This document shows, piece after piece, positions 872-63,130 of a stretch of 64,000 nt of DNA. The position numbers and the translations under genes are program-made. Below the pieces are notes generated by a model that saw only the letters and a program-made list of their open reading frames with translations, ran no database searches and was not told where the DNA came from. Each line of letters starts with the position of its first letter. Positions within the stretch are counted from its first letter, which is position 1. The DNA comes from a virus (lineage: Duplodnaviria; Caudoviricetes), in IMG/VR virus record IMGVR_UViG_3300017492_000028, positions 8,983-72,982 of that record; one strand, 5' to 3'.

Positions 872-3800
872 TTATTTACATTTAATGCTTATATTTCCAC
901 TATCTATTAAATCTATCATTTGCTCTTTAGATGAATTTGGAAGACTGTCAATATATGCTCCAATGCTAGGATGTTCACCTATTCTAGAACCTAATATATC
1001 ATCATCATCATCACTGGCAAAAATATCATCTTCGTATTCAATGCCCTCTGTTTTTTCTGTTTGTGTTTCAGTTGTATCTTCTGTGTCAGTTGTGTCTTCT
1101 GTTTGTGAAAACAAATCATTTGTTTTAATTAAATCTCCAAGAGCAATAAATTCTTTTTCTCTAAGACTATTCTTTTTAATATCCCAACCAAATACATCAG
1201 ATATAATTTCAAGTATTTTTTGAAATAGTGTTTTGGACGTTGCTTTGTTATCTACAACTGCTGAAGTTTCATTAAGTAATTGAACAAGATTTGAATTAGT
1301 CAAACTTTCAACTAAAAACTCCTCAATTCCGTATTTAGTAAATTCTTTAGCTATACTATTGCCTTTCCACTTACCACTATCAACTTCTTTTTTAAAGTCA
1401 TCAAATACCTCATTTACTTTATTAAGTATTTTATCCTTTTTACCACTATCATGTAGAATCTTATGTAGTTGCTCATGAATAAGCTTGCGTACTGCTTCAT
1501 TTCTTCTACGGGGGGTTAGACATAAGCCAATCCACTTATTACTTACATATATATTGCCTGTTTTCTCATCATAAGCAGCATACGCATCTTTAAGTTTTTT
1601 ATCTATATTACCTATATTTTCTACAAATATAATATTTTTTGGTAACAATCCAAATCCCTGTATAGGCAATATTAAATTTTTAACTTTTTTAATCTCATCC
1701 TTGCCTAGAAGAATATTAGCAAGTGCTACACCTTTATCAGTATTATCACTTTGTAATATATTCCTAACATCAGATTCAATTTTATCAGATTCCAAATTGA
1801 TTTCTGATTGGCTTTCTGTAGAATTTTCATTTTCACTTTCTTCAGCAAATTCTTCTTTAGGGGTTATTTTTACATAAAATGACTGATTAGCTATTTGTTC
1901 TTCATTGTCAAATGAATAAAAGTTAGTTTCGTCCCCATTATAATTTTTGCTCTTAGCAACATTTACTCTAATAAGATTATTATCTAGAATAAAACTTTTA
2001 TAGGATATAATATTATGTACATGAGGATTGGCTTTATCTTTTGAATTAGGTATTTCTATTCTAAAACTACCATCTGGATTAGCTTTAAAGAAACCATTAA
2101 GTTCTCTTTTTTTATTACTTTCATAATCTAATGCTCCATAATTAAGCTCATAAGTAGAAACTGCAAATGCTTCTTTAAAAAACTCTTTCAGTTGTTTCTT
2201 TATGTCATCAGCTTGGTCTTTGCTAACTTTACTAAGATTAACAGCTCTATTGTCATTAGGAAGTTTTACAGCATAACTAGGAGCAATTCCTGTAGTTTTA
2301 AATATTCTAACATATTTTTTATTTGGAAGAGATATTAAAACGCCTATATCAACACCATTATTATTAGTAATGTGATGAATTAGTGGACCACCAAATATAT
2401 GACGATTGTTATTCTTTACTTTACCATTTCTCCAAAGATTGTCAATAAAATCTATTAAATTAGTTCCACTTCCGTCTTCTTGATTGAAATAATCATCAAC
2501 CAAGTTTTGAAGTTCTTCAAATAATTCTTTAGATATTTGTTTAGCCTCTTTACCAACACAACTATCTTTAGTTAAAACAGAAAAAGCAGAAGTAAGTCGT
2601 GTTTCACCATTTCCATTAGTTAATGCAATCATTGTAGTACCAGGCTTTATCTGACTAGTATCTGATAAATAAAGTTTACTACCATTGCTTAGTTGCATAG
2701 AATATCTATCAATGTTACCGTTTTCATCAACGCTCATTGGTTTATAAGCAATCTCAAATGACTGTTGATTGTCAATAGTAAGGGATTCAGCTATAGGAGT
2801 TGCTTTACTTCTTACTTCGGCAATATTTGTTCCATTATAACGAACATTCTCTCTTATTCTAGGACTATTAATTCTAGATATAGTAAAGTCAAAATGACTA
2901 ACTGATTTGCCAACATTATAAATGGTATTATAACTTGTTTTTAATTTATCAAACCAATTATCAAGACTATTACTTATAGCAAGATTAATTCTTTCACGAG
3001 AAACTGTTGCAGAAGTACCAACATATCTCCATAATTTAACAACTGAATTAACAATAATACTTGGGTCTATACTGTCATCAATTAATTCATCACTTATAGC
3101 TTTTTTAATAGCATTGGTATTCATGAAATGCTTTAAATCAGCTTTACTTATTTCTTTCTTATTACATAGTTCAAATATAAGCTGATTAATTTTTTTCGCA
3201 TCATCTGTTTCTTCAGAAAGCCAACTATTGAATCTATCTTTAAGAGGTGATTCTCCAGTGTTGCAATTTATTTCATAATTCCAACCCTCATTTCTAACGA
3301 AATAAGTATCTGGTTTACTTACTTTAGGAATAGACATATAAGCAATTACTTGCCCATTTACCTCAAGTGCAATTTGATTACCTATTTTTCGAGTAGATAA
3401 TTTATCTCCAACTTTCAAATGTTCAAGAACATTATAAAGATTATTAAGACGTTCTGTATCTAGACTTCTTTGAAATGCAGAAATTACAGTGTTAACACCA
3501 ATTCGATGCTCTTCTATAAAACCAAGTTTATCTACATTAGCTGTAGGTATATCTTTTTTAGCTCTAGCAAGTATTGCATCTTGTGAATCAAATTTGTCCA
3601 TAACTATATATTCATAATTAGGATTTTTAGATTGTTCCTCAAGATACGACTTAATAACTGAATACATTGCATCAGCCGTAGTATCATTATTGCTTACTTC
3701 ATTACACCACCTAAGCAAGTTTTCTAGACTAATAATCTTCTTTGTTATACCGTCAGAATTGGTAAACACATAAGAATTAGTAGCAGCAATATATTTAGTA

Positions 3801-6800
3801 AGCATATCACTAGCTGCACTATTTAATAAATCCAAAGCAGCAGTAACATCCTCAGCATTAGTTGCTTCTTCTAACAACCTACTAGCCATAAGAACATCAC
3901 CAACAGAAAATTTAGCTTTCAGAGCAGGTTCAAGACCTTTAATCAAAGCCTCTACTGCTTCTTGGTCTGGGTCATCTTTAAATTCTTCTTTTAAAGCGGT
4001 AATAACATCATCATAATTACCTTGACCATTAAAATTCTTAATAATGGTAACTGCTCTGTTATTACGATTGACAATTTCATCTCCCTCTGACATACCCCCC
4101 GTAGAAGAATTGCTGGTTGTTCCATTACTAGGAGTTGGTGATGTTGGCTTATCATTTGCAACTTCAGTTTTCTTTTGATTCGCAAGTTGTTCTAAAGGAG
4201 TAGGAGCCGGAGTTGAAGTTTCTGTGGCAGGTATTTCTTCTACGGGGGTGCTATTATTAGCATTTACAATCTTACCTTTTTCCCAATTAATAGTTACATT
4301 ACCAAATTTGTCAGTATATGTTATTTGCTTTGGCTTAACTATAACTTTAAGTTGGGCATTATCATCTAGCAGATTAACATCTCTATCTAAATCAAATAAT
4401 TCTGAATATTTGTATTCATCCTCTGTAGCTTCATAGGTTCTAACATAAGTAGTACCATTTGAATCGGTATTACCATGCGCTTCAGAAAAATTACCTTTAA
4501 GTTCAACAGTAGAGCCGTCATCAAGCTTGAATAACAAGCCCTGTTTTGAGGATTGGTTATTTGTTGTGTCTTGTTTTTGCCTTGTTGCTTGCTCCGTGTT
4601 CGATTGTGGTACTGTCTGTGATGAATTGGTAGGCTGTGGGTTTTGAGTTGTTTGTGATGAATTTGAATTTGTGGAATTTAATTCTTTTTCATCTTCACTA
4701 TCAACTCGTTCAGTAGTTTCTTCTGTAGCTTTAGCTTGTTTATTATTAGCCTTTTCTCTGGCAGCAAACATTACCTGAAGACTACGATATAAGGGTGTGT
4801 TAGCCTTGTTTGCAAAATTAAATATTTCAATTGCTTCTTTAAACTGCTTACGTTCTTCTTCATTCATGTCTGAAGATGCAATATTGAAATCATTTTCATT
4901 ACCGTCATATAATGCGGCAATAGAACCCTCAACTACATCTCTGCCATACTTATCAAACAGATTTTCAATAGTAACAGAAGCGTCTTTTAAAGCATTAATT
5001 CGTGCTTCATTTAATGTGTTATTTACTCGTGTAAGATAATTCTGTAATTGATCTTTAGTTTGAACAAGATTAGAAGCAAGAAGTTTATTTTGATATTGTA
5101 ATTGAATGTAAGCTCTATAATTATCGGCTGCATCCGGTGCTACTTGATTAATACCTTGCTTACCACGTATTGCTTCACGTGTTTCGGCTTGTATTTTCTT
5201 ATATTCTTGCTGAAATGCAAGTCTATCTACGGTACTAGCAGAATTTATTGTAGATTTATAATCACTATCAAATAACTTATATAAACTTTTAAAATCTTGT
5301 TTTTCTGAAGCATCAGTAATAGCTTTATCCATTTCAGTAACATCTTCTAATGCAGTTTCAGTTCCAAGTAACTTGAGATTATCACTCACGTTACTCATAG
5401 TATAAAGCATTTTAGATATACTAAATTCTTCTTCAGAAGCAACTAAAGAACGCTTTACTGATTTGATTTGAGTATCAATATTTTGCAGTGCAATACGCTT
5501 AGCAAGAGTATCACCGTTTTTAATACTCTCACGCAGTTTTGCACGTTCTACATAAAGGTCTTGAAGTATGGCAGTATAAGTAGTTAGCTCAAGTGCACTT
5601 CGGTAATTAAGTTCAGGATTTAATACAGGTGCGTCAGGATTAGATTTTCTGCCAATTTCATCTTCATAAGCACTAAGATACTTTTGAGCATTTTTATTAT
5701 TTTCTTCTATCTGAAGTTCACGATAAACATTGTCTGTAGCAGCCATTTGAATTGCTTCAATAGCTATGTATTTACCTTTATCTTCGCTATCAATATTGGC
5801 AGCTTGTCTATCAAGATTAATTATATTTCTATTATATCTATCTTGTATATCTTTAATGTCTTTTTTCATCTGCATTTGCCATTCGTCAGCATCTTTTTGA
5901 TTAATAATCCCTTTATCAATCATAGCCTTTTTAACATTATCAGATTCAACAAAGCCATCAAGCAAATCCACAGTGCCGTCATTAATACTTCTAAGAACAA
6001 TATCTGCTTTAGTTCTATTTCGAATGTCATCTATTTGTTGCTCCTTTTCAAAATCACTAAATTTATCATTATCCTTTACTTGCTGAATTGCATCTTCAGC
6101 CATATTCATTTTAATTTGTGCATCCCAAATAGAAGCAACTTTACGTTTAACTTCTGGTAGTTGAGTTAAACCTTTCCAACTTGTTTCAGCTTTTTGCTCA
6201 CCTGTTTTTTCATTATCTTTATTTTTATTTTCTTTTTCAGCTGCCGCATCCTCTAAAGTAAGTTGCACACGCTTAAATCCACTACCTACTTTTTGAAATA
6301 CAACTCCACCCAATGCACCCCAAAAAGCACTTTCCCATAATTGAGGCGCATTAAGATAACTTATCATACGAGTATCAAACGAAGAATAATCATCTTTACC
6401 AAGAAGCTGTTTGCCTAAGTGCATACCCTCTTCTTGGGCAACATAGTTAATTGCTTCCTCAGCACCTTCACTAAGCTGACTTCCAACAGTAAATGCTTCA
6501 CCAGGAACAAAATCACTTATAAAATCTGCTGTTTTTTGACCAAAACTACGGGCTTTTTCTAATTGCCTAACTTGTTCTGTAATAGTTTTCTCGTCAACAC
6601 CTTTAAGCTGGTCAGCATATCTTGCTCTTTGACGAGCTGCTTTACGAATAGAATATGATGAGTTTTTACCCAGCATACCTTTGCCAAATGAATTTCTAAG
6701 TCCATATAATTCAACAATATCAAATCCTATGTTACTCATATCTATAGCAAAAGTCCTATCAGCTGCTTCTTTAGCAAGTCGTTTAGCTACAGCATCTTTA

Positions 6801-7708
6801 TTTGACGTGTCTATACCTTGAAGTATATCTGCATTACGCTCTACTAAACGCGCGTATTCTTCATCAGACATTTGAGCTATTACATCTATATTATCATTAT
6901 ATTGGTCTTTCCAAACTTGACTTGATTCTTGATAATTTTCCATTATACGAGAACTAGCTGCGGTAAGACCATTTTCAATAAACCTGTTAACAGTATTAAT
7001 TGTACCAGGTTTATTAATTGCTATATCAATGCCTTTACCTATATTTCCTTGTTGAGCTAATGCCTTACCCATAGTTGATACGGCTTTGCGAGTATAACTA
7101 TTAAGTTTAGTAGCTTTACCTAGCCAACTAAGCCCTTTAACAAAACCTGTACTAGGAAGAAGAAGTGTAAGACTACTAGCAATACTAGGAATATTTTTAG
7201 CCCACCAACCAACATCAGTAAGACCACCATTAGATATATCTAAATCCGGGTCTGCATATATTGGAGCAATTTCATTATCAAACTTATCTTGTAATGACTG
7301 TATATATTGTGATACAGGATTTGAATAATCATTATCATTTCTAAATGCAGCACCTGTAAGATAATCTGTCATATCTGATATACCTCTAAACGTTCCAAGT
7401 CCTACTTCAGATACAAGTGTTTGTGCTAAAGCATTTCCTATTTTAGCCCAATCAGATTGAGCATTAGATAATTCTTTAGCAGGATTAAGCCCAGGTCTAA
7501 CAGTTATATTATATGGATTATATTTTTCTGTATCACGAACAGTAAAATTATTATTGGCATTTCTATAAAACAAGTCAGCCACAGGATTATATTCTCTATC
7601 ATCCTGTGTCTGAATGTATGGTGCTTGTCTATTTCTTTTAGCTTTTGGATTGTATGCTGGATTAGGAATTAGATAGCTACCTCTATTGAACAGCTCTTCG
7701 ACATTCAT
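872..7708 (-). CDS. Giant virion cargo (ejection) protein with C-terminal zincin-like metalloprotease motif
   Basis: 2278 aa. HEQLH (HExxH, 1463-1477) followed by EEFLVE (1307-1324). EGAEEA motif, hydrophobic Gly-rich segments, coiled coils and S/T/N/Q linkers. Lies in the crAss cargo locus. Confidence 0.7.
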   Translation of the reverse strand: MNVEELFNRGSYLIPNPAYNPKAKRNRQAPYIQTQDDREYNPVADLFYRNANNNFTVRDTEKYNPYNITVRPGLNPAKELSNAQSDWAKIGNALAQTLVSEVGLGTFRGISDMTDYLTGAAFRNDNDYSNPVSQYIQSLQDKFDNEIAPIYADPDLDISNGGLTDVGWWAKNIPSIASSLTLLLPSTGFVKGLSWLGKATKLNSYTRKAVSTMGKALAQQGNIGKGIDIAINKPGTINTVNRFIENGLTAASSRIMENYQESSQVWKDQYNDNIDVIAQMSDEEYARLVERNADILQGIDTSNKDAVAKRLAKEAADRTFAIDMSNIGFDIVELYGLRNSFGKGMLGKNSSYSIRKAARQRARYADQLKGVDEKTITEQVRQLEKARSFGQKTADFISDFVPGEAFTVGSQLSEGAEEAINYVAQEEGMHLGKQLLGKDDYSSFDTRMISYLNAPQLWESAFWGALGGVVFQKVGSGFKRVQLTLEDAAAEKENKNKDNEKTGEQKAETSWKGLTQLPEVKRKVASIWDAQIKMNMAEDAIQQVKDNDKFSDFEKEQQIDDIRNRTKADIVLRSINDGTVDLLDGFVESDNVKKAMIDKGIINQKDADEWQMQMKKDIKDIQDRYNRNIINLDRQAANIDSEDKGKYIAIEAIQMAATDNVYRELQIEENNKNAQKYLSAYEDEIGRKSNPDAPVLNPELNYRSALELTTYTAILQDLYVERAKLRESIKNGDTLAKRIALQNIDTQIKSVKRSLVASEEEFSISKMLYTMSNVSDNLKLLGTETALEDVTEMDKAITDASEKQDFKSLYKLFDSDYKSTINSASTVDRLAFQQEYKKIQAETREAIRGKQGINQVAPDAADNYRAYIQLQYQNKLLASNLVQTKDQLQNYLTRVNNTLNEARINALKDASVTIENLFDKYGRDVVEGSIAALYDGNENDFNIASSDMNEEERKQFKEAIEIFNFANKANTPLYRSLQVMFAAREKANNKQAKATEETTERVDSEDEKELNSTNSNSSQTTQNPQPTNSSQTVPQSNTEQATRQKQDTTNNQSSKQGLLFKLDDGSTVELKGNFSEAHGNTDSNGTTYVRTYEATEDEYKYSELFDLDRDVNLLDDNAQLKVIVKPKQITYTDKFGNVTINWEKGKIVNANNSTPVEEIPATETSTPAPTPLEQLANQKKTEVANDKPTSPTPSNGTTSNSSTGGMSEGDEIVNRNNRAVTIIKNFNGQGNYDDVITALKEEFKDDPDQEAVEALIKGLEPALKAKFSVGDVLMASRLLEEATNAEDVTAALDLLNSAASDMLTKYIAATNSYVFTNSDGITKKIISLENLLRWCNEVSNNDTTADAMYSVIKSYLEEQSKNPNYEYIVMDKFDSQDAILARAKKDIPTANVDKLGFIEEHRIGVNTVISAFQRSLDTERLNNLYNVLEHLKVGDKLSTRKIGNQIALEVNGQVIAYMSIPKVSKPDTYFVRNEGWNYEINCNTGESPLKDRFNSWLSEETDDAKKINQLIFELCNKKEISKADLKHFMNTNAIKKAISDELIDDSIDPSIIVNSVVKLWRYVGTSATVSRERINLAISNSLDNWFDKLKTSYNTIYNVGKSVSHFDFTISRINSPRIRENVRYNGTNIAEVRSKATPIAESLTIDNQQSFEIAYKPMSVDENGNIDRYSMQLSNGSKLYLSDTSQIKPGTTMIALTNGNGETRLTSAFSVLTKDSCVGKEAKQISKELFEELQNLVDDYFNQEDGSGTNLIDFIDNLWRNGKVKNNNRHIFGGPLIHHITNNNGVDIGVLISLPNKKYVRIFKTTGIAPSYAVKLPNDNRAVNLSKVSKDQADDIKKQLKEFFKEAFAVSTYELNYGALDYESNKKRELNGFFKANPDGSFRIEIPNSKDKANPHVHNIISYKSFILDNNLIRVNVAKSKNYNGDETNFYSFDNEEQIANQSFYVKITPKEEFAEESENENSTESQSEINLESDKIESDVRNILQSDNTDKGVALANILLGKDEIKKVKNLILPIQGFGLLPKNIIFVENIGNIDKKLKDAYAAYDEKTGNIYVSNKWIGLCLTPRRRNEAVRKLIHEQLHKILHDSGKKDKILNKVNEVFDDFKKEVDSGKWKGNSIAKEFTKYGIEEFLVESLTNSNLVQLLNETSAVVDNKATSKTLFQKILEIISDVFGWDIKKNSLREKEFIALGDLIKTNDLFSQTEDTTDTEDTTETQTEKTEGIEYEDDIFASDDDDDILGSRIGEHPSIGAYIDSLPNSSKEQMIDLIDSGNISIKCK

Positions 7709-10875: not shown

Positions 10876-13194
10876 TTAAAACAATCTAAGAGAATTTAAT
10901 GTTTGTCTCTTTCTAAGCATATCATTATTATATTTCTTTCTTGCATTGGAATATGCAGTTGTATCAAGAACACCGTCTTTCATATAATCTTCTTTGTTAG
11001 GTTCTTTGATATTGTTATAATAACTCCAATCATCAACAAGAGAATTATATAATCTATTACGCATATCCTTGCTAAATGGAACACCCATACTTGCTAATCT
11101 TGCAGGAGTACCATGCTCAGAACCAGCAAGTAACACTGCCTTAGCAATATCGCCTTCATATCTATCAGTGCCAGATTGCAAAAAATTAGTAACAGCATTA
11201 CTTAACCCACTAAAGCTTGCATTAAGTGCTTTTGCTCTAGCAAGTTTATAAGCATTATTTTGGTCTTGTTCTCTATTCTTAATCTCTGCAACATCTTTAG
11301 ACCACTGATTACGAGCAGCAGCATTTCTACTACGAACAGCTTGTTCATTTTCAGCTTGTCTATTCCTAAGTTCAGCTTCTTTATTAAATTTGGTATCCCA
11401 AAGTTTGTTAGCTTCTATTGCAGTATTTGTATTATTTGTCTGCATAGCATTTTGAGCAGCCTGCGAGCTAACGGTATTAGAAGCAATAGCTCTATTATTA
11501 TTAAGTCTTGCTCTTTCAAGTTCCGCAAGTTGAGCACCAATTCTATATCTTGTATCAAACGGCACTGCCATTTCACTTACAAACTGTGGTGTCTGATAAT
11601 CTGCTTTAAGATTCTTATAAGCATTTGCATTAAACAATCCAAGACTTAATGAACCTAGTGTATCAACTCCTAGTTTTAGATAATCAGAATAATTAAATCT
11701 AGCTCCCCATTTATTATCCTTTACAGGTCGCTTTTTAAAATCTTCTGTTTTATCATCTGTTGGTGTATCAGCAGATTTTTCTTTTGCAGAAAGTTGAGGA
11801 TAATCTTTTGCTGTTAAAGCGTTACCATTAATATCACAACCATATATATTCCAATTTTTATTATCATTATAGCCAACAAGTGCTTTAGGTCTTCCACCAT
11901 ATCGCATTGCTATCCTTAATTTCTCTACAGGGCGTCTATATAAAAGTGGCACTTCATCTTCAAGTACTTCACCACCATTACGCTTTTTAGTTCCGTCATC
12001 ATTAATACCATACATTTGTTTATATAACTCTTGCATAGCAAAAACTTGACTAGGGTTAGCGCCATTAATAACTGCATCAGCTGGACTTATACCATTAAAT
12101 ATAGGCTGAGCAGAGAATATCTTAACATTGGTTGGAGTCTTTTGCATAACCTCGTTATTCTCTGCCTCTATTTCTTTATTACCTACTTTAATGCCAATAC
12201 CAGTTTTACCATTATGCACTTGTTCATGGGTAGCCCCCCGTAGAAGAGATAGATGATTATGACCGAGTGGCATAGCTACTCCTCCGTCTATAACTTTTGT
12301 ATTACTACCTTGCTTGCTACCACCATTTCTATATGTAAGCTCTGGAGCAAAATCAGATTCATTATAACCTGACATGAAACTATTAAAAGCATTGCTTCTG
12401 CTCATTGCAGTAGTTCTCTCTGCGTTTTCCATAGCTTCTTTATTCTTTCTTCTTTGTTCACGAAGAATAGCTTTCTTTTTAGAATTAGCAGAAATCAATG
12501 CACCAGCTCCACTAATTAAAGAACCAAGAAATGCACGATTTCTTGGATAACGTCTAAGTATGCCATAACGAGCAACCATTGGTTTATCTGATAGAATAGT
12601 GGAGCTCATTAAACCACTTGTAGGATTACTAGTTTGTATGCCACTATTACCAGCATCCATATTAGTGTCAGTGCTTGTAGGTGTTGTAGAATCGGATGAA
12701 TTATCATTGCTATCATCACCGTTATTATCACTACCGTCTTTCTTTTTAAACAAACTTCCAATTTTACCTGTAAGCCAACTGTCAATTCCACTATTTGTAA
12801 CAGCTGCGCCAACGCCTTGAGTAAATGCTCCCCAAAAATCTCCACCCATTCCAAGATGAGGTCTAATAGTGCTCAATCCACCATTAGGTAAATCTGGTTG
12901 ACCAAATGTTGTAGGCATAGCTTGTTGCTGTGCTTGTGCATCTTTAGCTTTTTGTGCAGCAGCTTGTTGTGCAAGACTACCTTGTTTGCTGCCTTGAGAT
13001 GCTTGTAATTGCGCTGCTGCCATATTAGCTTGATTGACACGTTCATCTGCGTCAGCTTGCTTTTGTGCTCCAGCTACTTTAGAACCAGCTATTGCGTTCA
13101 TTGCGGCACCAGCTATTTGGCTTGCCGCATTTACAGCCATACCAATAAAAGCCTTATCTCTTCTACCACCATATTTTAATCTTCTGTGGTTCAT
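10876..13194 (-). CDS. Putative virion cargo protein with repeated [RK]-[YN]-GG motifs
   Basis: 772 aa; low-complexity A/Q and D/S/N tracts, amphipathic Gly/Ala segments, recurring YGG/NGG. Confidence 0.55.
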   Translation of the reverse strand: MNHRRLKYGGRRDKAFIGMAVNAASQIAGAAMNAIAGSKVAGAQKQADADERVNQANMAAAQLQASQGSKQGSLAQQAAAQKAKDAQAQQQAMPTTFGQPDLPNGGLSTIRPHLGMGGDFWGAFTQGVGAAVTNSGIDSWLTGKIGSLFKKKDGSDNNGDDSNDNSSDSTTPTSTDTNMDAGNSGIQTSNPTSGLMSSTILSDKPMVARYGILRRYPRNRAFLGSLISGAGALISANSKKKAILREQRRKNKEAMENAERTTAMSRSNAFNSFMSGYNESDFAPELTYRNGGSKQGSNTKVIDGGVAMPLGHNHLSLLRGATHEQVHNGKTGIGIKVGNKEIEAENNEVMQKTPTNVKIFSAQPIFNGISPADAVINGANPSQVFAMQELYKQMYGINDDGTKKRNGGEVLEDEVPLLYRRPVEKLRIAMRYGGRPKALVGYNDNKNWNIYGCDINGNALTAKDYPQLSAKEKSADTPTDDKTEDFKKRPVKDNKWGARFNYSDYLKLGVDTLGSLSLGLFNANAYKNLKADYQTPQFVSEMAVPFDTRYRIGAQLAELERARLNNNRAIASNTVSSQAAQNAMQTNNTNTAIEANKLWDTKFNKEAELRNRQAENEQAVRSRNAAARNQWSKDVAEIKNREQDQNNAYKLARAKALNASFSGLSNAVTNFLQSGTDRYEGDIAKAVLLAGSEHGTPARLASMGVPFSKDMRNRLYNSLVDDWSYYNNIKEPNKEDYMKDGVLDTTAYSNARKKYNNDMLRKRQTLNSLRLF

Positions 13195-17695: not shown

Positions 17696-18532
17696 TTAAT
17701 TATTTCTTGGGTCAAATGTACTATTATAAAAGAAATTGCGCCAACCCTCATCTTTATTCATTTTAGCTTTTGCAGAAGCAGCAGCTTTCGGTCTAAGGGT
17801 ATTCCACTGTAAATAAGGATTTGTAACAGGTGAATTAGATTTTAAATCATATACAGGATGATGACTACCTCTACTAAGGTGTTTAAATAGAATATACCAT
17901 GCTAGTGCTTCTAGCAAAAGACCATCATCATAAATATACGGAACTTCACAATTAAAATAATCATCATAATAAGTAGCAACTTCGTTTGTTTCAACTGTGA
18001 TACTATCTGTATCAAAGTTTAACTCAATGCTATTTCCAGAAACAACAAAGTTTCTACTTGAATCATTAGATATTACACTTGCTACTCGCATAAAATTAGT
18101 CCCTGTAGTATTGGTGTCATCAATAATAGCAATGACATCTTCACTAGTTTGTGTGGAACCCCCCGTAGAAGAATTGTTGCATGAACAATTACTTGATGAG
18201 CTATCATTAGCTGCTTCTATTTCACAGCCATTTTCATCATATACCTTAATGTCATTAGCATCTAATGAACAAGGAAATGTAGCAATTTTATCTGTAACCT
18301 CAAGAGTACGTTTCTTACGTTCTCTAGGCAAACATTTCATTTGGCTAAGAGCGTCTATAACCCATGCAGCACAACGCGGTATCCAATCACTTTCACTAAT
18401 ATTAAAGTCATTATCTACCTTCGCTACAAGCCTTTGCATACTTATATATGTATTGATTTTCATTTCTAATAAATTTAGTATATTCCTGTGGATAACGTTT
18501 AAGATATAATGTAAGTTTCTTTGCAATGTCAA
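17696..18532 (-). CDS. Tail ring/tubular protein (true start probably MKINTY, near 18463)
   Basis: 278 aa; synteny with the crAss tail ring genes next to the muzzle. Confidence 0.5.
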   Translation of the reverse strand: MTLQRNLHYILNVIHRNILNLLEMKINTYISMQRLVAKVDNDFNISESDWIPRCAAWVIDALSQMKCLPRERKKRTLEVTDKIATFPCSLDANDIKVYDENGCEIEAANDSSSSNCSCNNSSTGGSTQTSEDVIAIIDDTNTTGTNFMRVASVISNDSSRNFVVSGNSIELNFDTDSITVETNEVATYYDDYFNCEVPYIYDDGLLLEALAWYILFKHLSRGSHHPVYDLKSNSPVTNPYLQWNTLRPKAAASAKAKMNKDEGWRNFFYNSTFDPRNN

Positions 18533-20940: not shown

Positions 20941-21070
20941 TCGTATTTCTACTGCGAGAATATGTTTCTTCTTCCATACAATCTTCTATGTCGCAAAGCA
21001 TGTCTTTTATCTTATTAACATACTGTGTAACTTTATTTGTATTACTTCTATGTTCTACCATAATTATCAT
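20876..21070 (-). CDS. Small hypothetical protein (cassette gene 4)
   Basis: 64 aa; stop/start coupled with the upstream gene and overlaps the annotated 5' end of the next ORF. Confidence 0.55.
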   Translation of the reverse strand: MIIMVEHRSNTNKVTQYVNKIKDMLCDIEDCMEEETYSRSRNTSEYDNSDYTPRRRNISHRYDW

Positions 21071-41837: not shown

Positions 41838-41861
41838 AGAAGTAGTCTGGGAATGTACTAC

Positions 41862-44279: not shown

Positions 44280-44291
44280 AATTATATTATT

Positions 44292-46571
44292 TTAAAACCA
44301 ATCTCTTTTCATTATACTATTATCGTCATAATCTTCTTCTTTAATCTTTTTTCTATGCTCTAATTCTTTAGCTGCTTCAACGTTTTGACTTCTCCATTGT
44401 AACCCTCTAATTATCATTTCTGATACTCTATCATAGTTACCAATATTATTCCACATCTTTAATTCTACAATACTTTGGTAATCGTATATTGTGCGAAATA
44501 ATCTTATAGGTCTATCAAGTTCATCTCTACCAACTTCAGAATAAAGCATTTCTTTAAGAATACGCAATCCTTCAAGTTTCTTAGCTTCAGTACCCATATT
44601 GACACCATAGCTACCAACAACTTTACCTTTAATACTATTATCCCATATTTCAACAGGGTCTTTCATTAAGTATTTCAATGCTTTCCATTTAGTAAAGTTA
44701 CTAATAGTTTCACCACGGTTAACCTCAACTCCTGTAGTACCAATACAATTATAATACTTTGCTAAAAGCAATAATATTCTATCTGCTTCTTCAAGTGTTT
44801 CTGGACGACCATAATAACTTGCAACACACGCTGTTTTAAAGTTATTATATTTAGTTGGATTCATCCAAACTTTAATGCTATTATGTGAATGTTTAAGAGT
44901 AATACCTTTTGTATCTTTATTTATACCAACAGGGTCATAACTAATAGAATATAAGCCAGGAGGAGTACCATTTATTTGATTACCATGCACATCCCTATAT
45001 ATTATTTTTAACGGACTAAACCATTTGCGAATACAACCGTGTGGATGTTCATGTTCCTTTCTTGGAACACCTGTAATATAATCAAAATAATCTATATTAT
45101 ATCTTCCTCCCTCTGCTGCTATACGAGCATTTGTTCTAAACTCTACATTACCTCCTTTTTCAAACAGCATACCGTCAACATAGAAATTATATGCTGAATC
45201 ATTGCGAAGTATCTCTTCCCAAATCATTAGCTCTTCACTACTAAAAATATTTTCAATAGCAGAACTAAAACTTTCAGCTGGCTGCAAAGCATATTGCCCA
45301 AGATAATTAATATAATCTGCAAATGACTTAGCATTTTCTTTTTGATATTGTCGTTGCTTAAAAGCAAGATGCAAACCAACATTTAAGTCAGAATTGCCAT
45401 CTTTATCCATTGCCCAAGCATCCCCAAGCTTACCTTGAAGTCCCCAAGCATAAGGTTTGAAAAAACCACAAACTTCATGTCTGCAATCTTTATCCCAAAC
45501 ATTTTCAAAAGCAAGACAATTAAATGATTTAGGATTATAGAAATTACTAGCAAATGTTTGCATATCACCAGAGGTAGCAGTTCCCCAAGCAAATAAATTA
45601 CCAGTAACATAAGCACCACTAGTCATTGCAGGAACTGTTGCATTCATAAACGCATCATAATTATCCATAGTGGAAACCTCCTCTACTTTAACTTTTAATG
45701 CGTCCTTACCAATAGCACAATCGGGGTTATTTTGAGCAGACACAGAAAATAACGCGCTGTTCCATGCAGTTGGAGCAACTGTTCCATTAGGAAGTTTATA
45801 ACCTAGTACAAAATTTTCTTTATCACTTGTTAGAATACCTCGTTTAAAGAAAGTTTTAGTTTCATAAAATAGCAAATTTGCAATAGCAAAATCTGTAAGT
45901 CCACCTTTCTTTGTAAGATACTTCTTATCGATAGCTACATGTATATCAGTTTTATGAGGATTTAAGTTAACATCATTGGCACTATCACTAGCCATGATAT
46001 AAGAAAATCCTCCACGACGTGTTTTATCTATGATAAGATTTTTACCATTAAGAACCGCAAATTCCATAACAGCAAACGTCCAAAACTGTGCATCTATAAA
46101 ATTAGGAAAATCATAAAATTTCTTAGCAGTTGCTATACCTCCTGTAGTATTAATGGTACTTTCATCTACTTTCTCCATTAATGTATAATTAAGATAATTA
46201 TACATGGCACCGCTAATATGTACATCTTGAAGTTTACCATTACGCAAAAGACAAGGCGCACTAAAGCCATGTCTTCTACGATATTCTTCTCTTTTTCTTA
46301 ATTGTCTATAAGGAATACTATCTTCCTTATAATTAGTATATTTTTTATTGGCTCTATAAAAATCTGCCATTTCAGTAAAAAGATGAGTATTAACAAACTT
46401 ATCCCCAATCTGAATATTAAATAGCAAACCCCCACTTTCACCAACTAAAAAATTATCATAAGGGTCATTCCACCCTGCATCTTTTGCATGAGTGTATTTA
46501 GTCTTATCCTCATTTATATAATTAAGAAAAGAATATTCATTAATAAATCTTTCAAAACTTACTTCTATCAT
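44292..46571 (-). CDS. terL: Terminase large subunit
   Basis: 759 aa; KTRRGGFSY P-loop-like motif, VKVEEVS Walker B-like, YDP...YYGRP and GNYDRVS nuclease-domain motifs. Confidence 0.85.
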   Translation of the reverse strand: MIEVSFERFINEYSFLNYINEDKTKYTHAKDAGWNDPYDNFLVGESGGLLFNIQIGDKFVNTHLFTEMADFYRANKKYTNYKEDSIPYRQLRKREEYRRRHGFSAPCLLRNGKLQDVHISGAMYNYLNYTLMEKVDESTINTTGGIATAKKFYDFPNFIDAQFWTFAVMEFAVLNGKNLIIDKTRRGGFSYIMASDSANDVNLNPHKTDIHVAIDKKYLTKKGGLTDFAIANLLFYETKTFFKRGILTSDKENFVLGYKLPNGTVAPTAWNSALFSVSAQNNPDCAIGKDALKVKVEEVSTMDNYDAFMNATVPAMTSGAYVTGNLFAWGTATSGDMQTFASNFYNPKSFNCLAFENVWDKDCRHEVCGFFKPYAWGLQGKLGDAWAMDKDGNSDLNVGLHLAFKQRQYQKENAKSFADYINYLGQYALQPAESFSSAIENIFSSEELMIWEEILRNDSAYNFYVDGMLFEKGGNVEFRTNARIAAEGGRYNIDYFDYITGVPRKEHEHPHGCIRKWFSPLKIIYRDVHGNQINGTPPGLYSISYDPVGINKDTKGITLKHSHNSIKVWMNPTKYNNFKTACVASYYGRPETLEEADRILLLLAKYYNCIGTTGVEVNRGETISNFTKWKALKYLMKDPVEIWDNSIKGKVVGSYGVNMGTEAKKLEGLRILKEMLYSEVGRDELDRPIRLFRTIYDYQSIVELKMWNNIGNYDRVSEMIIRGLQWRSQNVEAAKELEHRKKIKEEDYDDNSIMKRDWF

Positions 46572-46577: not shown

Positions 46578-46916
46578 TCATTTAAATAACAATATTATCA
46601 AAGTGGCTAACAATCCACCACCAACAATACTTAATATATTTCTTTGCGTTTTATATTCTTTTGCAACAGTTTTATAATGCTCTATTTGAATACTATCATT
46701 TGCAATAATACTATCCTTTTTTGCATCTATTTGTTTAAGATATTTAAGTTCAGTCATCTTAATAACTGCTTTACGTAAATCAGAAACAGAAACAGTTACA
46801 CTATCTCGTGTTATACCCCCCGTAGAGAGAATATGTGCATTACTCGCTGATAAGTTTATAGAACAAACTAACAACGCTATCGTTATCAATGCTTTGAATT
46901 TGTATAATTTCTGCAT
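46578..46916 (-). CDS. Spanin-like protein
   Basis: 112 aa; N-terminal signal-like segment ending in Cys, C-terminal TM helix; overlaps the upstream gene, downstream of endolysin. Confidence 0.45.
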   Translation of the reverse strand: MQKLYKFKALITIALLVCSINLSASNAHILSTGGITRDSVTVSVSDLRKAVIKMTELKYLKQIDAKKDSIIANDSIQIEHYKTVAKEYKTQRNILSIVGGGLLATLIILLFK

Positions 46917-47115
46917 CTTTTACACTATCTAGTTTTTTTATATCAATTACTAAACTATCATTTCGTTTTTGAATAGTTTGTATTTCTTCAGTGTTTATGT
47001 CTATCACATTCTCTTCTACGGGGGTGCTAGAACAACAATGCGAGATAGTAATAGCTATTAATAGCACTAATGCAAAACCAAACACTATTACTAGTATATT
47101 ATTAAATTCTTTCAT
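46840..47115 (-). CDS. Spanin-like membrane-anchored coiled-coil protein
   Basis: 91 aa; N-terminal TM followed by CC; directly after endolysin. Confidence 0.45.
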   Translation of the reverse strand: MKEFNNILVIVFGFALVLLIAITISHCCSSTPVEENVIDINTEEIQTIQKRNDSLVIDIKKLDSVKDAEIIQIQSIDNDSVVSLFYKLISE

Positions 47116-49340: not shown

Positions 49341-49829
49341 TTAATAAGTATCTACTTGCCTAAAAGTACTACTATAACCTGCCATGTGAATATTAGCTAT
49401 ACTAACACCACGTCTAAGACACCAAGTATGATAAGCGTCAACATGTTTTCTGGCATTAACTGCAATGATATATCTTAAATATCTTTCATGCTCTCTACGT
49501 CTAGCTTCGTAATCAGTAGTTTGTTTTCTAAAAACAATATATTCTTTCTTAGTTAAAGTGCGTCTTGCTTCTTTAATCATTTCAGCATAACCAGGTCTAA
49601 AATAAAAAGGAGCTTTAACATCGCTATAACGTAATGTACAGCAATAAGGAATACCTACCCACTTATTATGAACAAGCACCTTAGCTGCATCAGTTTCAAG
49701 CTGTTCAACAATTTCTACAGCAAGTTCTTTGTCGATAATATTATCGTCAATTGTTTTTAATATATCCTCTTTTCTTACAACAGTAATAGGTCTTTCAGTA
49801 CCCGGATATTTATATTCATCTTTTGCCAT
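49341..49829 (-). CDS. Basic protein, possibly IHF/HU-like
   Basis: 162 aa, Arg/Lys-rich. Confidence 0.4.
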   Translation of the reverse strand: MAKDEYKYPGTERPITVVRKEDILKTIDDNIIDKELAVEIVEQLETDAAKVLVHNKWVGIPYCCTLRYSDVKAPFYFRPGYAEMIKEARRTLTKKEYIVFRKQTTDYEARRREHERYLRYIIAVNARKHVDAYHTWCLRRGVSIANIHMAGYSSTFRQVDTY

Positions 49830-49841: not shown

Positions 49842-49877
49842 AAAAGAAATACGGAGGGTTTGTGTCTAACCCCCCGT
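49842..49877 (-). terminator. Rho-independent terminator whose stem contains a copy of the CCCCCCGTAG motif
   Basis: Minus strand ACGGGGGGTT-AGACACA-AACCCTCCGT followed by ATTTCTTTT. Confidence 0.65.
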
Positions 49878-49894
49878 AGAAAGAATATGAATTG

Positions 49895-50464
49895 TTAGTT
49901 ATTAGTATCAGCTTCCTCTTCTGTTTCAACAGAAATAAAAGGAGAGTCATAATTATTTTGAACGGTAGAAACTACTTCTGCGTGTATATTGCAGTTAGGT
50001 ATTAGCTTAAACTCAACAAAATAATAATAGTTATCATCCTTTAAAGCCTCCATATAAATATCCTTGTCATCCTTGCACAGATTAACAACACTAGCTATTG
50101 ACAAAACATTAATGGGAGAATTAATCTGATAACCCAATGCTAAATCAGAACCAGCAATAATAACAGGATTGCCCAAAGTAAGACCATTACAAAAATCACT
50201 CTCTGATTCACCACTACAAACAAACAGAGGCACTACAGAAGAAGTAATGTTCTTATTCTCTTTGACACTGTTAAGAACTATTGCAAGCTTCTCACGATAA
50301 CAAAGGGCAATAATAGAATACTCTGGTGCAGGCTGAAGATGCTCAACACAACTCCGAAGATAATCAGCAGTAATTTCAGTAACATCCGTTGGAAGTTTAA
50401 GAACTACTTTTCCTGCTTTACCATTAACTTTGAATGGTTCTCCATTGATTTTAAATGCTTTCAT
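49895..50464 (-). CDS. Hypothetical protein, first gene of the minus-strand block
   Basis: 189-aa ORF with its own upstream -7 box. Confidence 0.7.
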   Translation of the reverse strand: MKAFKINGEPFKVNGKAGKVVLKLPTDVTEITADYLRSCVEHLQPAPEYSIIALCYREKLAIVLNSVKENKNITSSVVPLFVCSGESESDFCNGLTLGNPVIIAGSDLALGYQINSPINVLSIASVVNLCKDDKDIYMEALKDDNYYYFVEFKLIPNCNIHAEVVSTVQNNYDSPFISVETEEEADTNN

Positions 50465-54303: not shown

Positions 54304-54585
54304 ATGAATAAGAAAGTTTGTGGGGAACCCCCCGTAGAGAAGAAATATGATGATATTCAGCCCATGATATACAACAATCATATACATCATTATGTTCAAT
54401 CTTATATCGCGTCTATATTACAACATCGTGATTTAGGTAAGAACTTTGCAGACCCTCAAGATGTCAAAATATATCATCTTGATAATCATCCTGCATGGGT
54501 TAAGGCTATTACTAATTATGGCACGTTCACTATTAATAAGCGTGCTATGCTGAATGTTGAATTAACAGCATTAAAATGCTTATGA
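54304..54585 (+). CDS. Small early hypothetical protein
   Basis: 93-aa ORF. Confidence 0.65.
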   Translation: MNKKVCGEPPVEKKYDDIQPMIYNNHIHHYVQSYIASILQHRDLGKNFADPQDVKIYHLDNHPAWVKAITNYGTFTINKRAMLNVELTALKCL

Positions 54586-56914: not shown

Positions 56915-57064
56915 TGTGCATATTCTTCTCTACGGGGGGTTAAACATAAGCTTCATTGGCATGTACTACTAGTACGGTGTATGATGCGAAATCACAATGA
57001 AGCACAATGTGATGATAATATCACAGATACTGATTATTAACTAATAAAATTTTGTTGTAAAGAA

Positions 57065-59398: not shown

Positions 59399-61702
59399 AT
59401 GATTGTTAGTTTAGCAAGTGATGTAGAGGTTTTTCCTAATCTATTTAGTATTGGTTTCGTAGATATTAGAAGTTATCTTCAAACCTTTGCTGATTGTGTA
59501 GATGATAAAGGAAATGCTATACCTATGACTGATAAGCTAACTGTTGCAGAAATAAAGCAACGATTAGATAGTGTTAAAAAATATAAGTTTTATATATCAG
59601 ATACTGATGATTCTCAACTACTATCTATCGTTGCTTTTATTAATAATATGCAAGCTCATTATGAAACAGATAGTTATGGTAATCAATATCCTGTAAGATA
59701 TGACGTTTATGGTTATAATTTTCAAGGTTATGATGATTATATGATTAAAGCATTTCTAATGTATTTTGATAAATATGACAATACTAAAGAATTGCTTAAT
59801 AAATTGTATGATTTGAGTAAGAAAATTATTAAATCCCAAAAGGATAAAGATAGTTTTTATAATGATAAACAACTTGATCTTATAAGGCATTATAGATTGC
59901 CGTATGCAACTGTTGATGTACAAAAGGTTTTTGCATTAAACGCTGTAACAGTTACTTATGATAAAGAGACAGGAGAAAGAAACAAGTATGGTAAACGATT
60001 AAAACAAGTTTCTATTAATCTCAAATGGTATAATCTATTGGAATTTAGTTTACCTCCTATTGATGAAGAAGAAGCTGATATATATTGGCGTAAATTTCCA
60101 GGATATAGAGGTATGAGTGTTGAGCAATTAAATACCCTTATAACACAAGATTTTGATAGATATGTTTTGCCTAAATATGTTGAGTCTATGCTTGACTATA
60201 ATTTTAATGACATATATCTTGTCGCTGAAATAGTTAGACAAAAACCCGATGAGATTAAGCTCCGTTATAGTCTTGGTAGTGCATTTAAATTAAATCTTCT
60301 ATGTAGTTCTCGTGCTAACATTGCTGACAGACTGCTAATTAAATTTTATTCTGAAATGAGCGGTCTAAAAGTTGAACAGTTTAAAGACCTTAGAACTGAA
60401 CGTACTAAACTTAGTTTTAATAAGATTATATTTCCTCATATAAAGTTTCAAACTAAAGAACTGCAAGATATGCTTGCAGAAATGAAACAAGTTGCTATTT
60501 ATCATACTAATAAAGCAAGTTTTGAGAAAGTAGTAAAATTTAAGGGTAGCACATATACTCTTGCTACGGGGGGATTGCACAGTAAAGATATACCTGCCAT
60601 TCTTAAATCAACTGACAAATATACATATATTCATTATGATATAAGCAGTTTTTATCCAAGTGTTATGGTTGCATATAAAATATGTCCTAAACACCTTAAT
60701 CAACCTGTATTTACTAAAATGGTTGATTATTTTAGAACTACTCGTATTAAATGTAAACATACGTCAGATGATGTAGAACAGTGTATTAAAGGTGTAAAGA
60801 ATAAACTAAGTGCAGAAGCATTAAAGATTGTAATAAATGCTATTTATGGTAAATTTGGCAGTGATAAATTCTGGCTATATGATAGATTTGCACAATTACA
60901 AGTTACTATTAACGGACAATTAATGGTAATGATGGTTGTAGAAGCTCTTGAACTAGGTGGAATACATGTTGTATCAGCTAATACAGACGGTATAATTGTT
61001 AAACTACCAAATGATAAACGAGAAGAATTTAAACAAATAACTGATGATTGGTGTAAACAAAATGGTTTAAGCGCAGATAGTGAGGAATATAAAATATTTG
61101 TAACAAGAGATATTAATAATTATCTTGATTTACAAACGAATGGAAAAACAGAATATAAAGGTGCTTTTGATCCAAAGCAATACATTAAAGATTTAGGTAA
61201 AGGATATGACATGCCAATAGTTGCTAAAGCTGTTGAAAATTATTTTCTTTATAATAAACCTGTAATGGAAACTTTAAAAGAAAGTAATGATATTCTTGAT
61301 TTCTGTAAAACTCAAAATGTGGGAGAACAGTTTGAAATTGTATATGATACTTTTGAAAATGGTAAATCTATAAGAAAATATAGTCAACGTAATGTTAGAT
61401 TCTATGTTTCTAAATGTGGTGTTATTATTCAAAAAGAACATAAAGCAACTAAAGCTGTTCAACGATTAGCTCATGGTTTGCCAGTGATTGTAATTAACAC
61501 GCTAGATGATAAACCTATTGAAGAACGAGAAATAGATTATAAGTATTATTATGATGAAGCATATAAGAATATTAATCCTATTATGCTTGGTATTTCTCAA
61601 TCACAAAAAGCTGATCAACTACGTGGTACAAAAAGTGGCAAAATAACTCTTAAAAAATATGCACATGATTATCAAACATTATTCACAAATGATGATTTTT
61701 AA
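59399..61702 (+). CDS. polB: Family B DNA polymerase with 3'-5' exonuclease
   Basis: DVEVF (ExoI), GYNFQGYDD (ExoII), YDISSFYPS (A), KIVINAIYGK (B), SANTDGI (C). Confidence 0.9.
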   Translation: MIVSLASDVEVFPNLFSIGFVDIRSYLQTFADCVDDKGNAIPMTDKLTVAEIKQRLDSVKKYKFYISDTDDSQLLSIVAFINNMQAHYETDSYGNQYPVRYDVYGYNFQGYDDYMIKAFLMYFDKYDNTKELLNKLYDLSKKIIKSQKDKDSFYNDKQLDLIRHYRLPYATVDVQKVFALNAVTVTYDKETGERNKYGKRLKQVSINLKWYNLLEFSLPPIDEEEADIYWRKFPGYRGMSVEQLNTLITQDFDRYVLPKYVESMLDYNFNDIYLVAEIVRQKPDEIKLRYSLGSAFKLNLLCSSRANIADRLLIKFYSEMSGLKVEQFKDLRTERTKLSFNKIIFPHIKFQTKELQDMLAEMKQVAIYHTNKASFEKVVKFKGSTYTLATGGLHSKDIPAILKSTDKYTYIHYDISSFYPSVMVAYKICPKHLNQPVFTKMVDYFRTTRIKCKHTSDDVEQCIKGVKNKLSAEALKIVINAIYGKFGSDKFWLYDRFAQLQVTINGQLMVMMVVEALELGGIHVVSANTDGIIVKLPNDKREEFKQITDDWCKQNGLSADSEEYKIFVTRDINNYLDLQTNGKTEYKGAFDPKQYIKDLGKGYDMPIVAKAVENYFLYNKPVMETLKESNDILDFCKTQNVGEQFEIVYDTFENGKSIRKYSQRNVRFYVSKCGVIIQKEHKATKAVQRLAHGLPVIVINTLDDKPIEEREIDYKYYYDEAYKNINPIMLGISQSQKADQLRGTKSGKITLKKYAHDYQTLFTNDDF

Positions 61703-61711: not shown

Positions 61712-63130
61712 ATGGTAACTGCTGAACAACTATTTGAACAAGCTATCATTCATTGGAGAGATGCAAAAGGTAGAGGTACTGCTTTTATTCCTCAGCCATT
61801 GGATGATAAAGCTATGGTGTTAGGTATTCTTCAGCGAATTTATATTCGCAATCCTACACAAGAAGTTATGATTGTAGTCAATACGTATAATGAACGAATT
61901 GACTTAATACAATTTCTAACAAGACAAGGTAATGAGGAAAATGATGATGAGTTTAAAAAGTTAATTTCAACTAAGAAACTTAAACTTGTTTCCGCTAATT
62001 TGCTTGAAAATAACCTTGAGTATTTTAATATTAGATACAGATACTTAATTGTTTATCATGTTAAAGATATTAGTAAAATATTATCTGCCATGATTGAACA
62101 TGCAAAGTTTGTATGCAATGTTTATAATATTCTTGCAAGTGATGAAACAAGAAATATTCTTTATTCAACTTGTCCTTTATTGCCAGATTTCAAACAAAAT
62201 GAAATCGATAGTATTCGGAGAAGCACCCCCGTAGAAGAAGAATTGATTGGTGTTGATTTTGGTGAAGCTGATGCAGTCATTTATGATAGATATACTAAAT
62301 ATATTAATGAATCTATTGCTATATTTGGTAGTCTTGAAATAATGAATACTGCTCGTCTTGGTGATAGAAATACCAATAGGTCTGAAATGGCAGTCTGTTA
62401 TGATATTGCTAAGGAAAATGGGTGGAATGAAAGACTTGATATGAGTATTGGTTTTAATAAGCAAATAGATGCAATGTTTAATCCTAATGCTCTTAATACT
62501 CGTGCATCTGACACCTATTCATATATACATAAACGTATGGATTTCTGTACAGATTATAATGCCAAAATAGATGTAATTCTTCGTCTTGTAAAAGAAAATG
62601 TAAACAAGAAAATATTGATAATTAATAAGCGTGGTGAATTTGCAAGTATTGTTACTGCTGCTATTAATGAGCAAACTGAAGCATTATGCGCTAATTACCA
62701 TGACAAAGTAGATAATATTCCAGCTGTTGATATTAATGGACAACCAGTGTTTTATAAAAGTGGAGTAAATAAAGGCAAACGTCGTATGATGGGCGCACAA
62801 GCTCAAAGAACTCTGGCTGTGCAACAATTCAATGATGGTTTAATTAATGTATTATCTACAAGTGGTTCACCTGATAAATCTTTAAATGTTGATGTAGATA
62901 TGGTTATTATAACATCTCCTGCATGTGATGAAATCGAAAATTACATTTACAGATTGTCCTCAGTGAATTTTGTTGGCTGTCATATTCCGTTGTTTACTCT
63001 CTATTGCAAAAACAGTATAGAAGAACGTAAAGTGCTGGAAAAAGAGCAATCAAAGACGCACAAAATAGTTAATAATACTGAAAATGAGGTTTATGCTGAT
63101 AAAAATCTAGATACTATCATTGTCAATTAG
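61712..63130 (+). CDS. SF2 helicase-like protein with degenerate motifs
   Basis: 472 aa; AKGRGT N-terminal motif; C-terminal helicase-C-like KKILIIN...LAVQQFNDGLINVLST...LNVDVDMVII; no canonical Walker motifs. Confidence 0.5.
   Translation: MVTAEQLFEQAIIHWRDAKGRGTAFIPQPLDDKAMVLGILQRIYIRNPTQEVMIVVNTYNERIDLIQFLTRQGNEENDDEFKKLISTKKLKLVSANLLENNLEYFNIRYRYLIVYHVKDISKILSAMIEHAKFVCNVYNILASDETRNILYSTCPLLPDFKQNEIDSIRRSTPVEEELIGVDFGEADAVIYDRYTKYINESIAIFGSLEIMNTARLGDRNTNRSEMAVCYDIAKENGWNERLDMSIGFNKQIDAMFNPNALNTRASDTYSYIHKRMDFCTDYNAKIDVILRLVKENVNKKILIINKRGEFASIVTAAINEQTEALCANYHDKVDNIPAVDINGQPVFYKSGVNKGKRRMMGAQAQRTLAVQQFNDGLINVLSTSGSPDKSLNVDVDMVIITSPACDEIENYIYRLSSVNFVGCHIPLFTLYCKNSIEERKVLEKEQSKTHKIVNNTENEVYADKNLDTIIVN

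Follow-up and report, generated by a model that had tools for sequence, protein, structure and literature searches.

The DNA considered here is a 64-kb stretch (the window) that makes up bases 8983-72982 of a 72,982-bp virus record, IMGVR_UViG_3300017492_000028 of IMG/VR. It comes from a crAss-like phage of the family Intestiviridae. In the capsid, portal and terminase region, its DNA is ~73% identical to that of cr271_1 and ctcc615, and ~66% identical to that of the prototypical crAssphage. Late genes occupy the - strand up to ~50 kb; small early open reading frames (ORFs) and replication genes then follow on the + strand, the latter encoding a Dda/RecD-like helicase, a DNA polymerase whose homologue in crAssphage is annotated as family B, and a SNF2-like ATPase. 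Scattered through all of this, within genes and between them, is a short GC-rich word with the core CCCCCGTAG. This word is the subject of the analysis.

The window holds 19 copies of CCCCCGTAG, 11 on the + strand and 8 on the - strand, as the original prediction had counted them, with coordinates right to within 0-7 nt. Dinucleotide shuffles of the window deliver a mean of 0.02 copies, and never more than 1. The full record holds 21 copies against the 0.10 expected under an order-3 Markov model; the core and its extensions rank, by a wide margin, at the top of the over-represented 8-10-mers there. The word is also sharp. Nearly all CCCCGT hexamers in the genome (21 of 23) are part of a motif copy, and no copies with a damaged core were found when 2 mismatches to CCCCCGTAGARGA were allowed. 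Its general form is TAG[A/C][C/T] C4-6 GT RR, followed by a purine-rich run and often by ATG, so described over a length of ~22-26 nt with an information content of 33-44 bits. This is a real signal and apparently an undescribed one; literature searches for the motif itself and for crAss-related subjects found no published description.

Coordinates below are those of the 9-nt core; the full signal, read on its C-rich strand, extends ~6 nt to the 5' side and 10-14 nt to the 3' side. At the left of the window, the 2278-aa gene at 872-7708 (-) carries a sense copy at 1506-1514 (-), read as TPRRR, which has a same-orientation counterpart in four relatives, shifted by ~270-325 nt. The same gene carries a convergent pair with 144 nt between its members: an antisense copy at 4096-4104 (+), in a Ser/Thr-rich linker (SSTGG) whose surroundings cannot be aligned with relatives, and a sense copy at 4240-4248 (-), read as STPVEE. 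Antisense copies follow at 12235-12243 (+), in the gene at 10876-13194 (-) with the peptide LLRGA, and at 18160-18168 (+), in the ORF at 17696-18532 (-) for crAss tail ring protein 1, with the peptide SSTGG. The first of these is matched exactly, in position and orientation, by a copy in cr8_1 at 29626, and the second has its exact positional orthologue in the prototypical crAssphage at 58727. Another exact orthologue, in cr8_1 at 41931, matches the sense copy at 20907-20915 (-), which encodes PPVEG near the 5' end of the gene at 20476-20940 (-) (DUF7841). The gene at 21067-21537 (-) is crossed by an antisense copy at 21420-21428 (+; SSTGG). The 1261-aa gene at 27101-30886 (-) has a copy of each kind, sense at 29839-29847 (-; SPVEW) and antisense at 30184-30192 (+; SPTGG). 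At 35675-35683 (+), a copy lies antisense over the final codons of the gene at 35670-36602 (-), which read SSTGE and then stop.

Between the gene at 40138-41463 and the portal gene (41862-44279, -) lies a copy at 41695-41703 (-). It sits in a non-coding gap of ~400 nt (41464-41861) upstream of the portal gene; this gap is kept, at 340-455 nt, in cr271_1, ctcc615, cr8_1 and crAssphage. The 3' part of the portal gene itself bears an antisense copy at 42065-42073 (+; SSTGG), where the relatives have no copy and encode different residues. A second convergent pair, with 199 nt between the two, is made by the antisense copy at 46817-46825 (+), in the gene at 46578-46916 (-) with the peptide LSTGG, and the copy at 47016-47024 (-), which is intergenic or within a doubtful 93-aa ORF. 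The copy at 49871-49879 (+) falls between genes at 49341-49829 (-) and 49895-50464 (-). Among the small + strand ORFs, one copy is intergenic (56930-56938, -) and one is sense at the start of the ORF at 54304-54585 (+), where it encodes PPVEK (54329-54337, +). The last two copies are in replication genes. That at 60564-60572 (-) is antisense in the DNA polymerase gene (59399-61702, +), in the conserved ATGGLH stretch; that at 62226-62234 (+) is sense in the ATPase gene (61712-63130, +), encodes STPVEE, and has an exact same-orientation orthologue in each of the four relatives (at 11765 in the prototypical crAssphage).

Counted against genes, 6 of the window copies are sense, 8 antisense and 5 intergenic. 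The proposed division into 16 coding and three intergenic copies falls within the range of our own gene calls, which give 14-16 copies in ORFs and 3-5 between them, the range coming from two doubtful small ORFs. Four reading frames are used in the window (TPVEE/PPVE, TPRRR, SSTGG and LLRGA), as had been claimed, along with the placement of a copy in the ATGGLH stretch of the polymerase. A copy just outside the window uses a fifth frame (LLYGG). The sole unused frame is the one that would place TAG in frame.

These positions and orientations mean that the word is not an ordinary promoter or terminator. A less ordinary promoter might nevertheless be imagined, one from which the giant phage RNA polymerase (RNAP) would serve antisense control, DNA entry or priming instead of expressing genes in the ordinary way. 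The size, asymmetry, information content and lineage-specific forms of the word would fit, and the stretch that follows the core on its 3' side, being rich in purines, looks like an initially transcribed region. The promoters of the T7 group (T7, T3, SP6, K11) offer the parallel: they are ~23 bp, asymmetric and highly conserved inside any one genome, and their dialects change along with the polymerase. Further, crAss-like phages have a virion RNAP that works on single-stranded templates (bioRxiv 10.1101/2020.03.07.982082). However, T7-group promoters precede genes and point with transcription, while most copies of this word are intragenic and run in both directions, about half of them antisense, and the intergenic copies keep no fixed distance to start codons. 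In phage phi14:2, moreover, no shared motif lies ahead of the early transcripts, and the middle and late genes use the host RNAP (bioRxiv 10.1101/2020.03.07.982082). Steigviridae and Suoliviridae also have the RNAP, but lack the word. Promoters of this special kind are therefore quite unlikely.

Is the word selected as DNA, or is it a by-product of the proteins? When synonymous codons are shuffled gene by gene, coding copies fall from the observed 14 to ~0.2; the excess over chance that had been claimed survives codon-aware controls. Relatives provide a second test, in which local alignments of the proteins were used to place each copy. Within the window, five copies (12235, 18160, 20907, 46817 and 62226), together with one just outside it, lie <=3 nt from a same-orientation copy in another genus. 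Overall, 13 of ~45 mapped site-relative comparisons are exact in this sense (<=3 nt, same orientation). At 46817, the orthologues are exact in cr271_1, ctcc615 and cr8_1, and the peptide, LSTGG in the window, becomes SFTGE, LPTGE and PFTGG in these three, respectively, each matching the form of the word in its own genome. For two copies, the same-orientation counterparts in relatives are 300-700 nt away, which indicates local turnover under a constraint on spacing.

The polymerase site presents the reverse situation. The residues ATGG are conserved in 5/5 genomes, and the window genome encodes them as GCT ACG GGG GGA, using codons that are rare here (ACG and GGG make up 7% and 5% of their own codon families). 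The four relatives encode the same residues as GCA/GCT ACT/ACA GGT/GGA GGT, without a copy of the motif. As only codons differ, this site arose by synonymous change alone. The three lines of evidence, the codon-shuffle null, the rare-codon site and the dialect-following peptides, bear out the view that selection is on the DNA and not on the protein. The signal overrides codon choice, and even amino-acid sequence, in essential genes, among them those for the polymerase, the portal protein and an ATPase. Over shorter times, eight genomes of one genus with 92-97% identity all share 21 of 24 sites. Across these eight, the variability of the 8-nt core is about half that of the background (6% versus 12% variable columns); the 3' flank of ~30 nt is not conserved, having 17-19% variable columns against the same 12%.

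These facts bear on the hypothesis that the word is a miniature mobile or gene-converting element that inserts in frame, in the manner of repetitive extragenic palindromes (REP/REPIN), miniature inverted-repeat transposable elements (MITEs), or the GC clusters of yeast mitochondria. Some features have that look: the word is rich in GC while the genome is rich in AT, some copies form inverted doublets, and all copies in a lineage change in concert. The hypothesis is very improbable. Copies occupy orthologous codons across genera, and one came into being through synonymous point changes with no insertion. No hairpin, decayed copies or transposase accompany the word, and its spacing along each strand is even. 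Repeats of the REP/REPIN/MITE type are, moreover, palindromic and extragenic, and most copies of this word are coding.

The word takes a different dialect in each of the Intestiviridae genomes examined. The core CCCCGTAG is found in cr271_1 (n=13), ctcc615 (n=19) and the prototypical crAssphage (n=16), the last having a further 15 of CCCCGTGG; in cr8_1 the form is CCCCGTAA (n=26). Written out, the dialects are TAAC-C6-GTAGAAGAAAT in the window genome, TAGCTC5GTAGAAGAGATG in cr271_1, AGCCGC4GTAAAAGGTATG in cr8_1, and TAGAC-C5-GTRGAGGATGGA in crAssphage. Some version of the word is seen in most of 80 related IMG/VR loci. In one lineage, all copies read GCCGCCCTGTAAAA, so that the core CCCCGT has changed to CCCTGT in concert; this lineage would be useful for tracing the reader protein by co-variation. 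Conversely, 50-kb samples from crAss001 (Steigviridae) and from three members of the Suoliviridae lack the word.

Some side observations were made on these relatives. In the prototypical crAssphage, short GC-rich hairpins or CGCT-rich tracts precede several copies (28050-28200 and other intergenic ones), and a convergent doublet is found immediately upstream of repL, in what could be an origin-like region. The Crevaviridae genome cr127_1 has a different dispersed GC-rich repeat of ~45 nt, which contains CCTCTCGCCCTTGTGGCCA. Its 8 copies in 50 kb (at 1769, 11364, 11912, 19699, 28698, 28879, 42040 and 42240) are in both orientations, some paired 180-550 nt apart. Separately, a blastn search had 29 Flavobacterium psychrophilum phage records matching somewhere in window positions 38100-46000; the same search placed 29 records in the 80-90% identity band, probably these phages over a short piece only.

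The dialects also bear on whether the word belongs to the host, as a Bacteroidales Chi or an uptake sequence, or is an artefact of assembly. The resemblance to such host signals is formal only. Enrichment in host genomes, which had been suggested as something to look for, is not seen: five Bacteroidales genomes hold 8-25 copies of the motif each, against 15-31 of a reversed control word. Inverted pairs of the word in bacterial genomes were considered, and proved to be unrelated long GC hairpins with different flanks. Further, dialects differ by phage lineage. As to artefact, copies are present in independent GenBank and IMG/VR assemblies from several studies, and this alternative, raised with the original prediction, therefore fails. 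In two oversized IMG/VR records (222 kb and 167 kb), the word is confined to the crAss-like part. These records join a crAss-like genome to 70-130 kb of other DNA that is without the word, or almost so, and may be chimeric or concatenated. Thus, a host signal or an artefact is hardly credible.

Uptake sequences may also be compared with the word directly. They are in genome-wide excess, in both orientations, within genes in tolerated frames, and with lineage dialects (PMC2817400, PMC3630211). The DUS (DNA uptake sequences) of Neisseriaceae and the USS (uptake signal sequences) of Pasteurellaceae share with the present word their over-representation in both orientations, their place in weakly constrained protein regions, and their dialects. 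They differ in being shorter, in serving the uptake machinery of competent bacteria, and in occurring ~1 per kb; the word here is in a virulent phage, evenly placed on each strand, and often at the same codon across genera.

How are the copies laid out? Here, the two strands must be taken separately; both carry copies in all genomes examined. The coefficient of variation (CV) of gaps between same-strand neighbours is 0.31 (+) and 0.52 (-) in this genome, where random placement gives ~0.9; it is 0.3-0.5 for most strands in 11 genomes, and up to 0.88 for the sense array. When the strands are pooled, the CV of all sites rises to 0.53-0.72. Among ~270 copies, the smallest same-strand distance is 1252 nt, while opposite-strand copies come within 37-52 nt of each other in conserved doublets, mostly convergent. 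Orientation alternates between neighbouring copies in 185 of 271 cases. If orientation labels are shuffled with positions fixed, the regularity on each strand is lost (p=0.0024 for this genome, <0.0002 for the combined set), so that the reader of the word must be sensitive to strand.

The array antisense to late genes is complete in most lineages, and the sense array is sparser; in two lineages, the latter has no copies over ~25 kb of structural genes. This may be because sense reading forces Pro-Pro-Val-Glu into structural proteins. No flip of orientation, of the kind known from FtsK-orienting polar sequences (KOPS) or SpoIIIE recognition sequences (SRS), is seen at the module boundary or where GC skew and gene direction invert. 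Nor is a hairpin seen: on either strand, 52-nt segments around the copies fold with the same energy as segments taken at random. No tRNA or Rfam family was found in the window either, and the absence of a hairpin and of an Rfam family means that the signal is read as linear sequence.

The word is best read as a phage-private, strand-polar mark on DNA. The idea of a genome-wide cis-signal of the Chi, KOPS or uptake type was thus well founded, the signal being strand-specific, even, and conserved across a phage family. To that idea, the present analysis adds three observations: copies are evenly spaced on each strand, some hold orthologous positions in relatives, and the word is limited to one family, whose replication module lacks DnaB. 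The layout calls for a reader that moves on one strand and must, wherever it is in the genome and whichever way it goes, meet a mark of the right orientation before some maximum distance is passed.

A static reader is the natural counter-proposal. Here, the copies would be polar sites for a protein that binds double-stranded DNA, serving as a roadblock to translocating enzymes or as an anchor in the organisation of the genome. An asymmetric site of 22-26 bp and 33-44 bits suits a large protein footprint, such as that of Tus-Ter; the dialects co-evolve by lineage, and secondary structure is lacking. Cluster A mycobacteriophages provide a system of similar scale, having 20-35 asymmetric stoperators per genome that are read by one phage protein. 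Stoperators, however, are 13-17 bp, mostly intergenic, oriented with transcription, and used for lysogenic repression, none of which holds here. Further, if orientation were of no account, the pooled sites should form the regular array, but they are less regular (CV 0.53-0.72) than each strand alone (0.3-0.5); a bound protein, moreover, would impede the phage's own forks and transcription.

No candidate for such a protein was found. The original prediction had pointed to IHF-like genes as DNA organisers. Two of these ORFs, at 17696-18532 and 19362-20051, are usually annotated as IHF-like, but match the Pfam families CrAss_Ring_1 and CrAss_Ring_2, one clearly and one at 1e-10; a third, at 18411-19358 between the two, has no significant Pfam match. 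The genes so read match tail ring proteins and are thus unlikely to be DNA organisers. On balance, roadblocks or anchors are unlikely.

A strand-polar signal might instead be cut. By this account, the copies are sites where a phage nickase makes site-specific single-strand nicks in virion or replicating DNA. Phage T5, phiKMV-like phages, tf and Rembedalsseter have nick motifs that are likewise short, non-palindromic, conserved words, placed in and between genes regardless of coding, shared by related phages, and without an assigned function (PMC11780129). The signal here is suitably strand-specific, and Intestiviridae encode a DNA ligase. Known nick motifs (9-19 nt), however, lie on one strand only and are unevenly clustered in part of the genome, where the present word forms even arrays on both strands; nicks at its opposite-strand copies, which can be 37-52 nt apart, would put the duplex at risk of breaking. 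A conserved nickase was not found either. In a test that is weak, none of 78 ends of related metagenomic contigs fell within 100 nt of a copy. Nick sites are thus possible, but improbable.

Another tracking reader would be that of a private analogue of Chi, which a phage helicase-nuclease would read in single-stranded DNA as the cue to switch from degradation to recombination, marking phage DNA as self while that of the host is degraded. Chi, as read by RecBCD or AddAB, is polar and strand-specific, and its usefulness is tied to the distance to the next correctly oriented copy; the word here is polar, on both strands, with a limited maximum gap. Its information content is high enough for it to be absent from a host genome, and its frequency in the five Bacteroidales genomes is that of the control. 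Parts of the needed machinery are also at hand, with a RecD/Dda-like helicase and a PD-(D/E)XK exonuclease in the phage, and RecT in its relatives.

Chi sites, however, are 5-8 nt, lie in host chromosomes, and are co-oriented with replication; the present word has 33-44 bits, is private to the phage, and runs on both strands. No recognition subunit like those of AddAB/RecBCD was identified. Recombination hot spots had been proposed earlier as one role for the word; in the eight genomes of 92-97% identity, the four-gamete test gave 0.45-0.50 across sites against 0.41-0.43 at random places (p=0.07-0.3), which is no significant excess of breakpoints. A Chi-like role is therefore possible but doubtful.

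What, then, might the reader be? The scales tip slightly in favour of a protein of the replication and recombination machinery. The Intestiviridae replication module consists of a family B polymerase, a Dda/RecD-like superfamily 1 helicase, a SNF2 ATPase and RecT. The DnaB_C domain was not found in any of the six motif-bearing genomes, nor in the Crevaviridae genome. It was found in 3/3 motif-less genomes of Suoliviridae and Steigviridae, in two above the cut-off and in crAss001 weakly; the crAss001 gene with the weak match is annotated as a replicative helicase. The Crevaviridae genome, cr127_1, shares the DnaB-less module, and its own dispersed repeat may be an analogous system. RepL was considered as the reader and rejected, as the Pfam RepL domain is present only in the prototypical crAssphage (in two copies), and not in the five other motif-bearing genomes. 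A primase is present in the prototypical crAssphage as gp21 (PHROG 12622, E=1.8e-167), and primase is universal in Crassvirales (PMC10136315).

The mechanism that we hold most likely, with a probability of only about 0.25-0.3, is that the copies are start sites for priming. The reader would be a phage-encoded protein that follows one strand of the DNA, and each strand would need a copy roughly every 3-10 kb. New DNA chains would be begun at the copies by the DnaG-type primase of the phage. With no DnaB-type helicase to recruit the primase, priming would have to be directed by sequence. The genome of crAss002 is circularly permuted and terminally redundant (PMC10136315). If a circularly permuted genome is copied by recombination-dependent replication, forks would run both ways everywhere, and sites would be wanted on both strands. 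The chemistry may also be suggested by the word. In T7 and T4, primers begin with pppAC, for which a GT in the template is the guide; by analogy, the invariant GT next to the C run could do the same here.

Known priming signals resemble the word in being strand-specific templates, and the inverted pair of ssiA and ssiB, on opposite strands, resembles the tight doublets here. The even arrays on each strand also suit a signal for whichever strand is the lagging template. Several facts count against the priming hypothesis. Known primases read 3-5 nt, at sites that are very frequent, rather than 33-44 bits. Known sequence-directed priming signals (the origin of phage G4, ssiA/ssiB of RSF1010) are hairpins, present once or twice per replicon; here there are 20-30 unstructured sites of 22-26 nt over a genome, and no hairpin of the G4/ssi type was found at the motif copies. 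The ~25-kb gap in the sense array over structural genes, seen in some lineages, is hard to square with obligatory priming on that strand. No step in GC or AT skew is seen at the sites, and the lack of an orientation flip at the inversion of GC skew is contrary to a simple two-replichore model. Finally, the correlation with DnaB comes from only two or three independent clades.

A broader reading asks for less, and in our judgment falls just short of an even chance. Here, the word would be the genome-wide punctuation of Intestiviridae, ~20-30 phage-private marks of 22-26 nt per genome that recur on each strand every few kb. These would be read in a strand-polar manner by a protein of the DnaB-less module, either to start chains without a helicase-primase, or to mark phage DNA as distinct from that of the host. 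The marks and their reader would co-evolve closely enough for the word to set the local protein sequence of unrelated genes.

The virus most abundant in the human gut belongs to the Intestiviridae. A conserved, strand-specific and evenly spaced signal in their genomes offers a handle on how they replicate, and shows where primers, nicks, transcription starts and bound proteins might be sought. The mode of replication of Crassvirales phages is, indeed, stated to be unknown (PMC10136315). The dialects, in turn, let the reader protein be sought through co-variation. Each dialect is also a lineage marker, one that flags the crAss-like part of chimeric metagenomic contigs.

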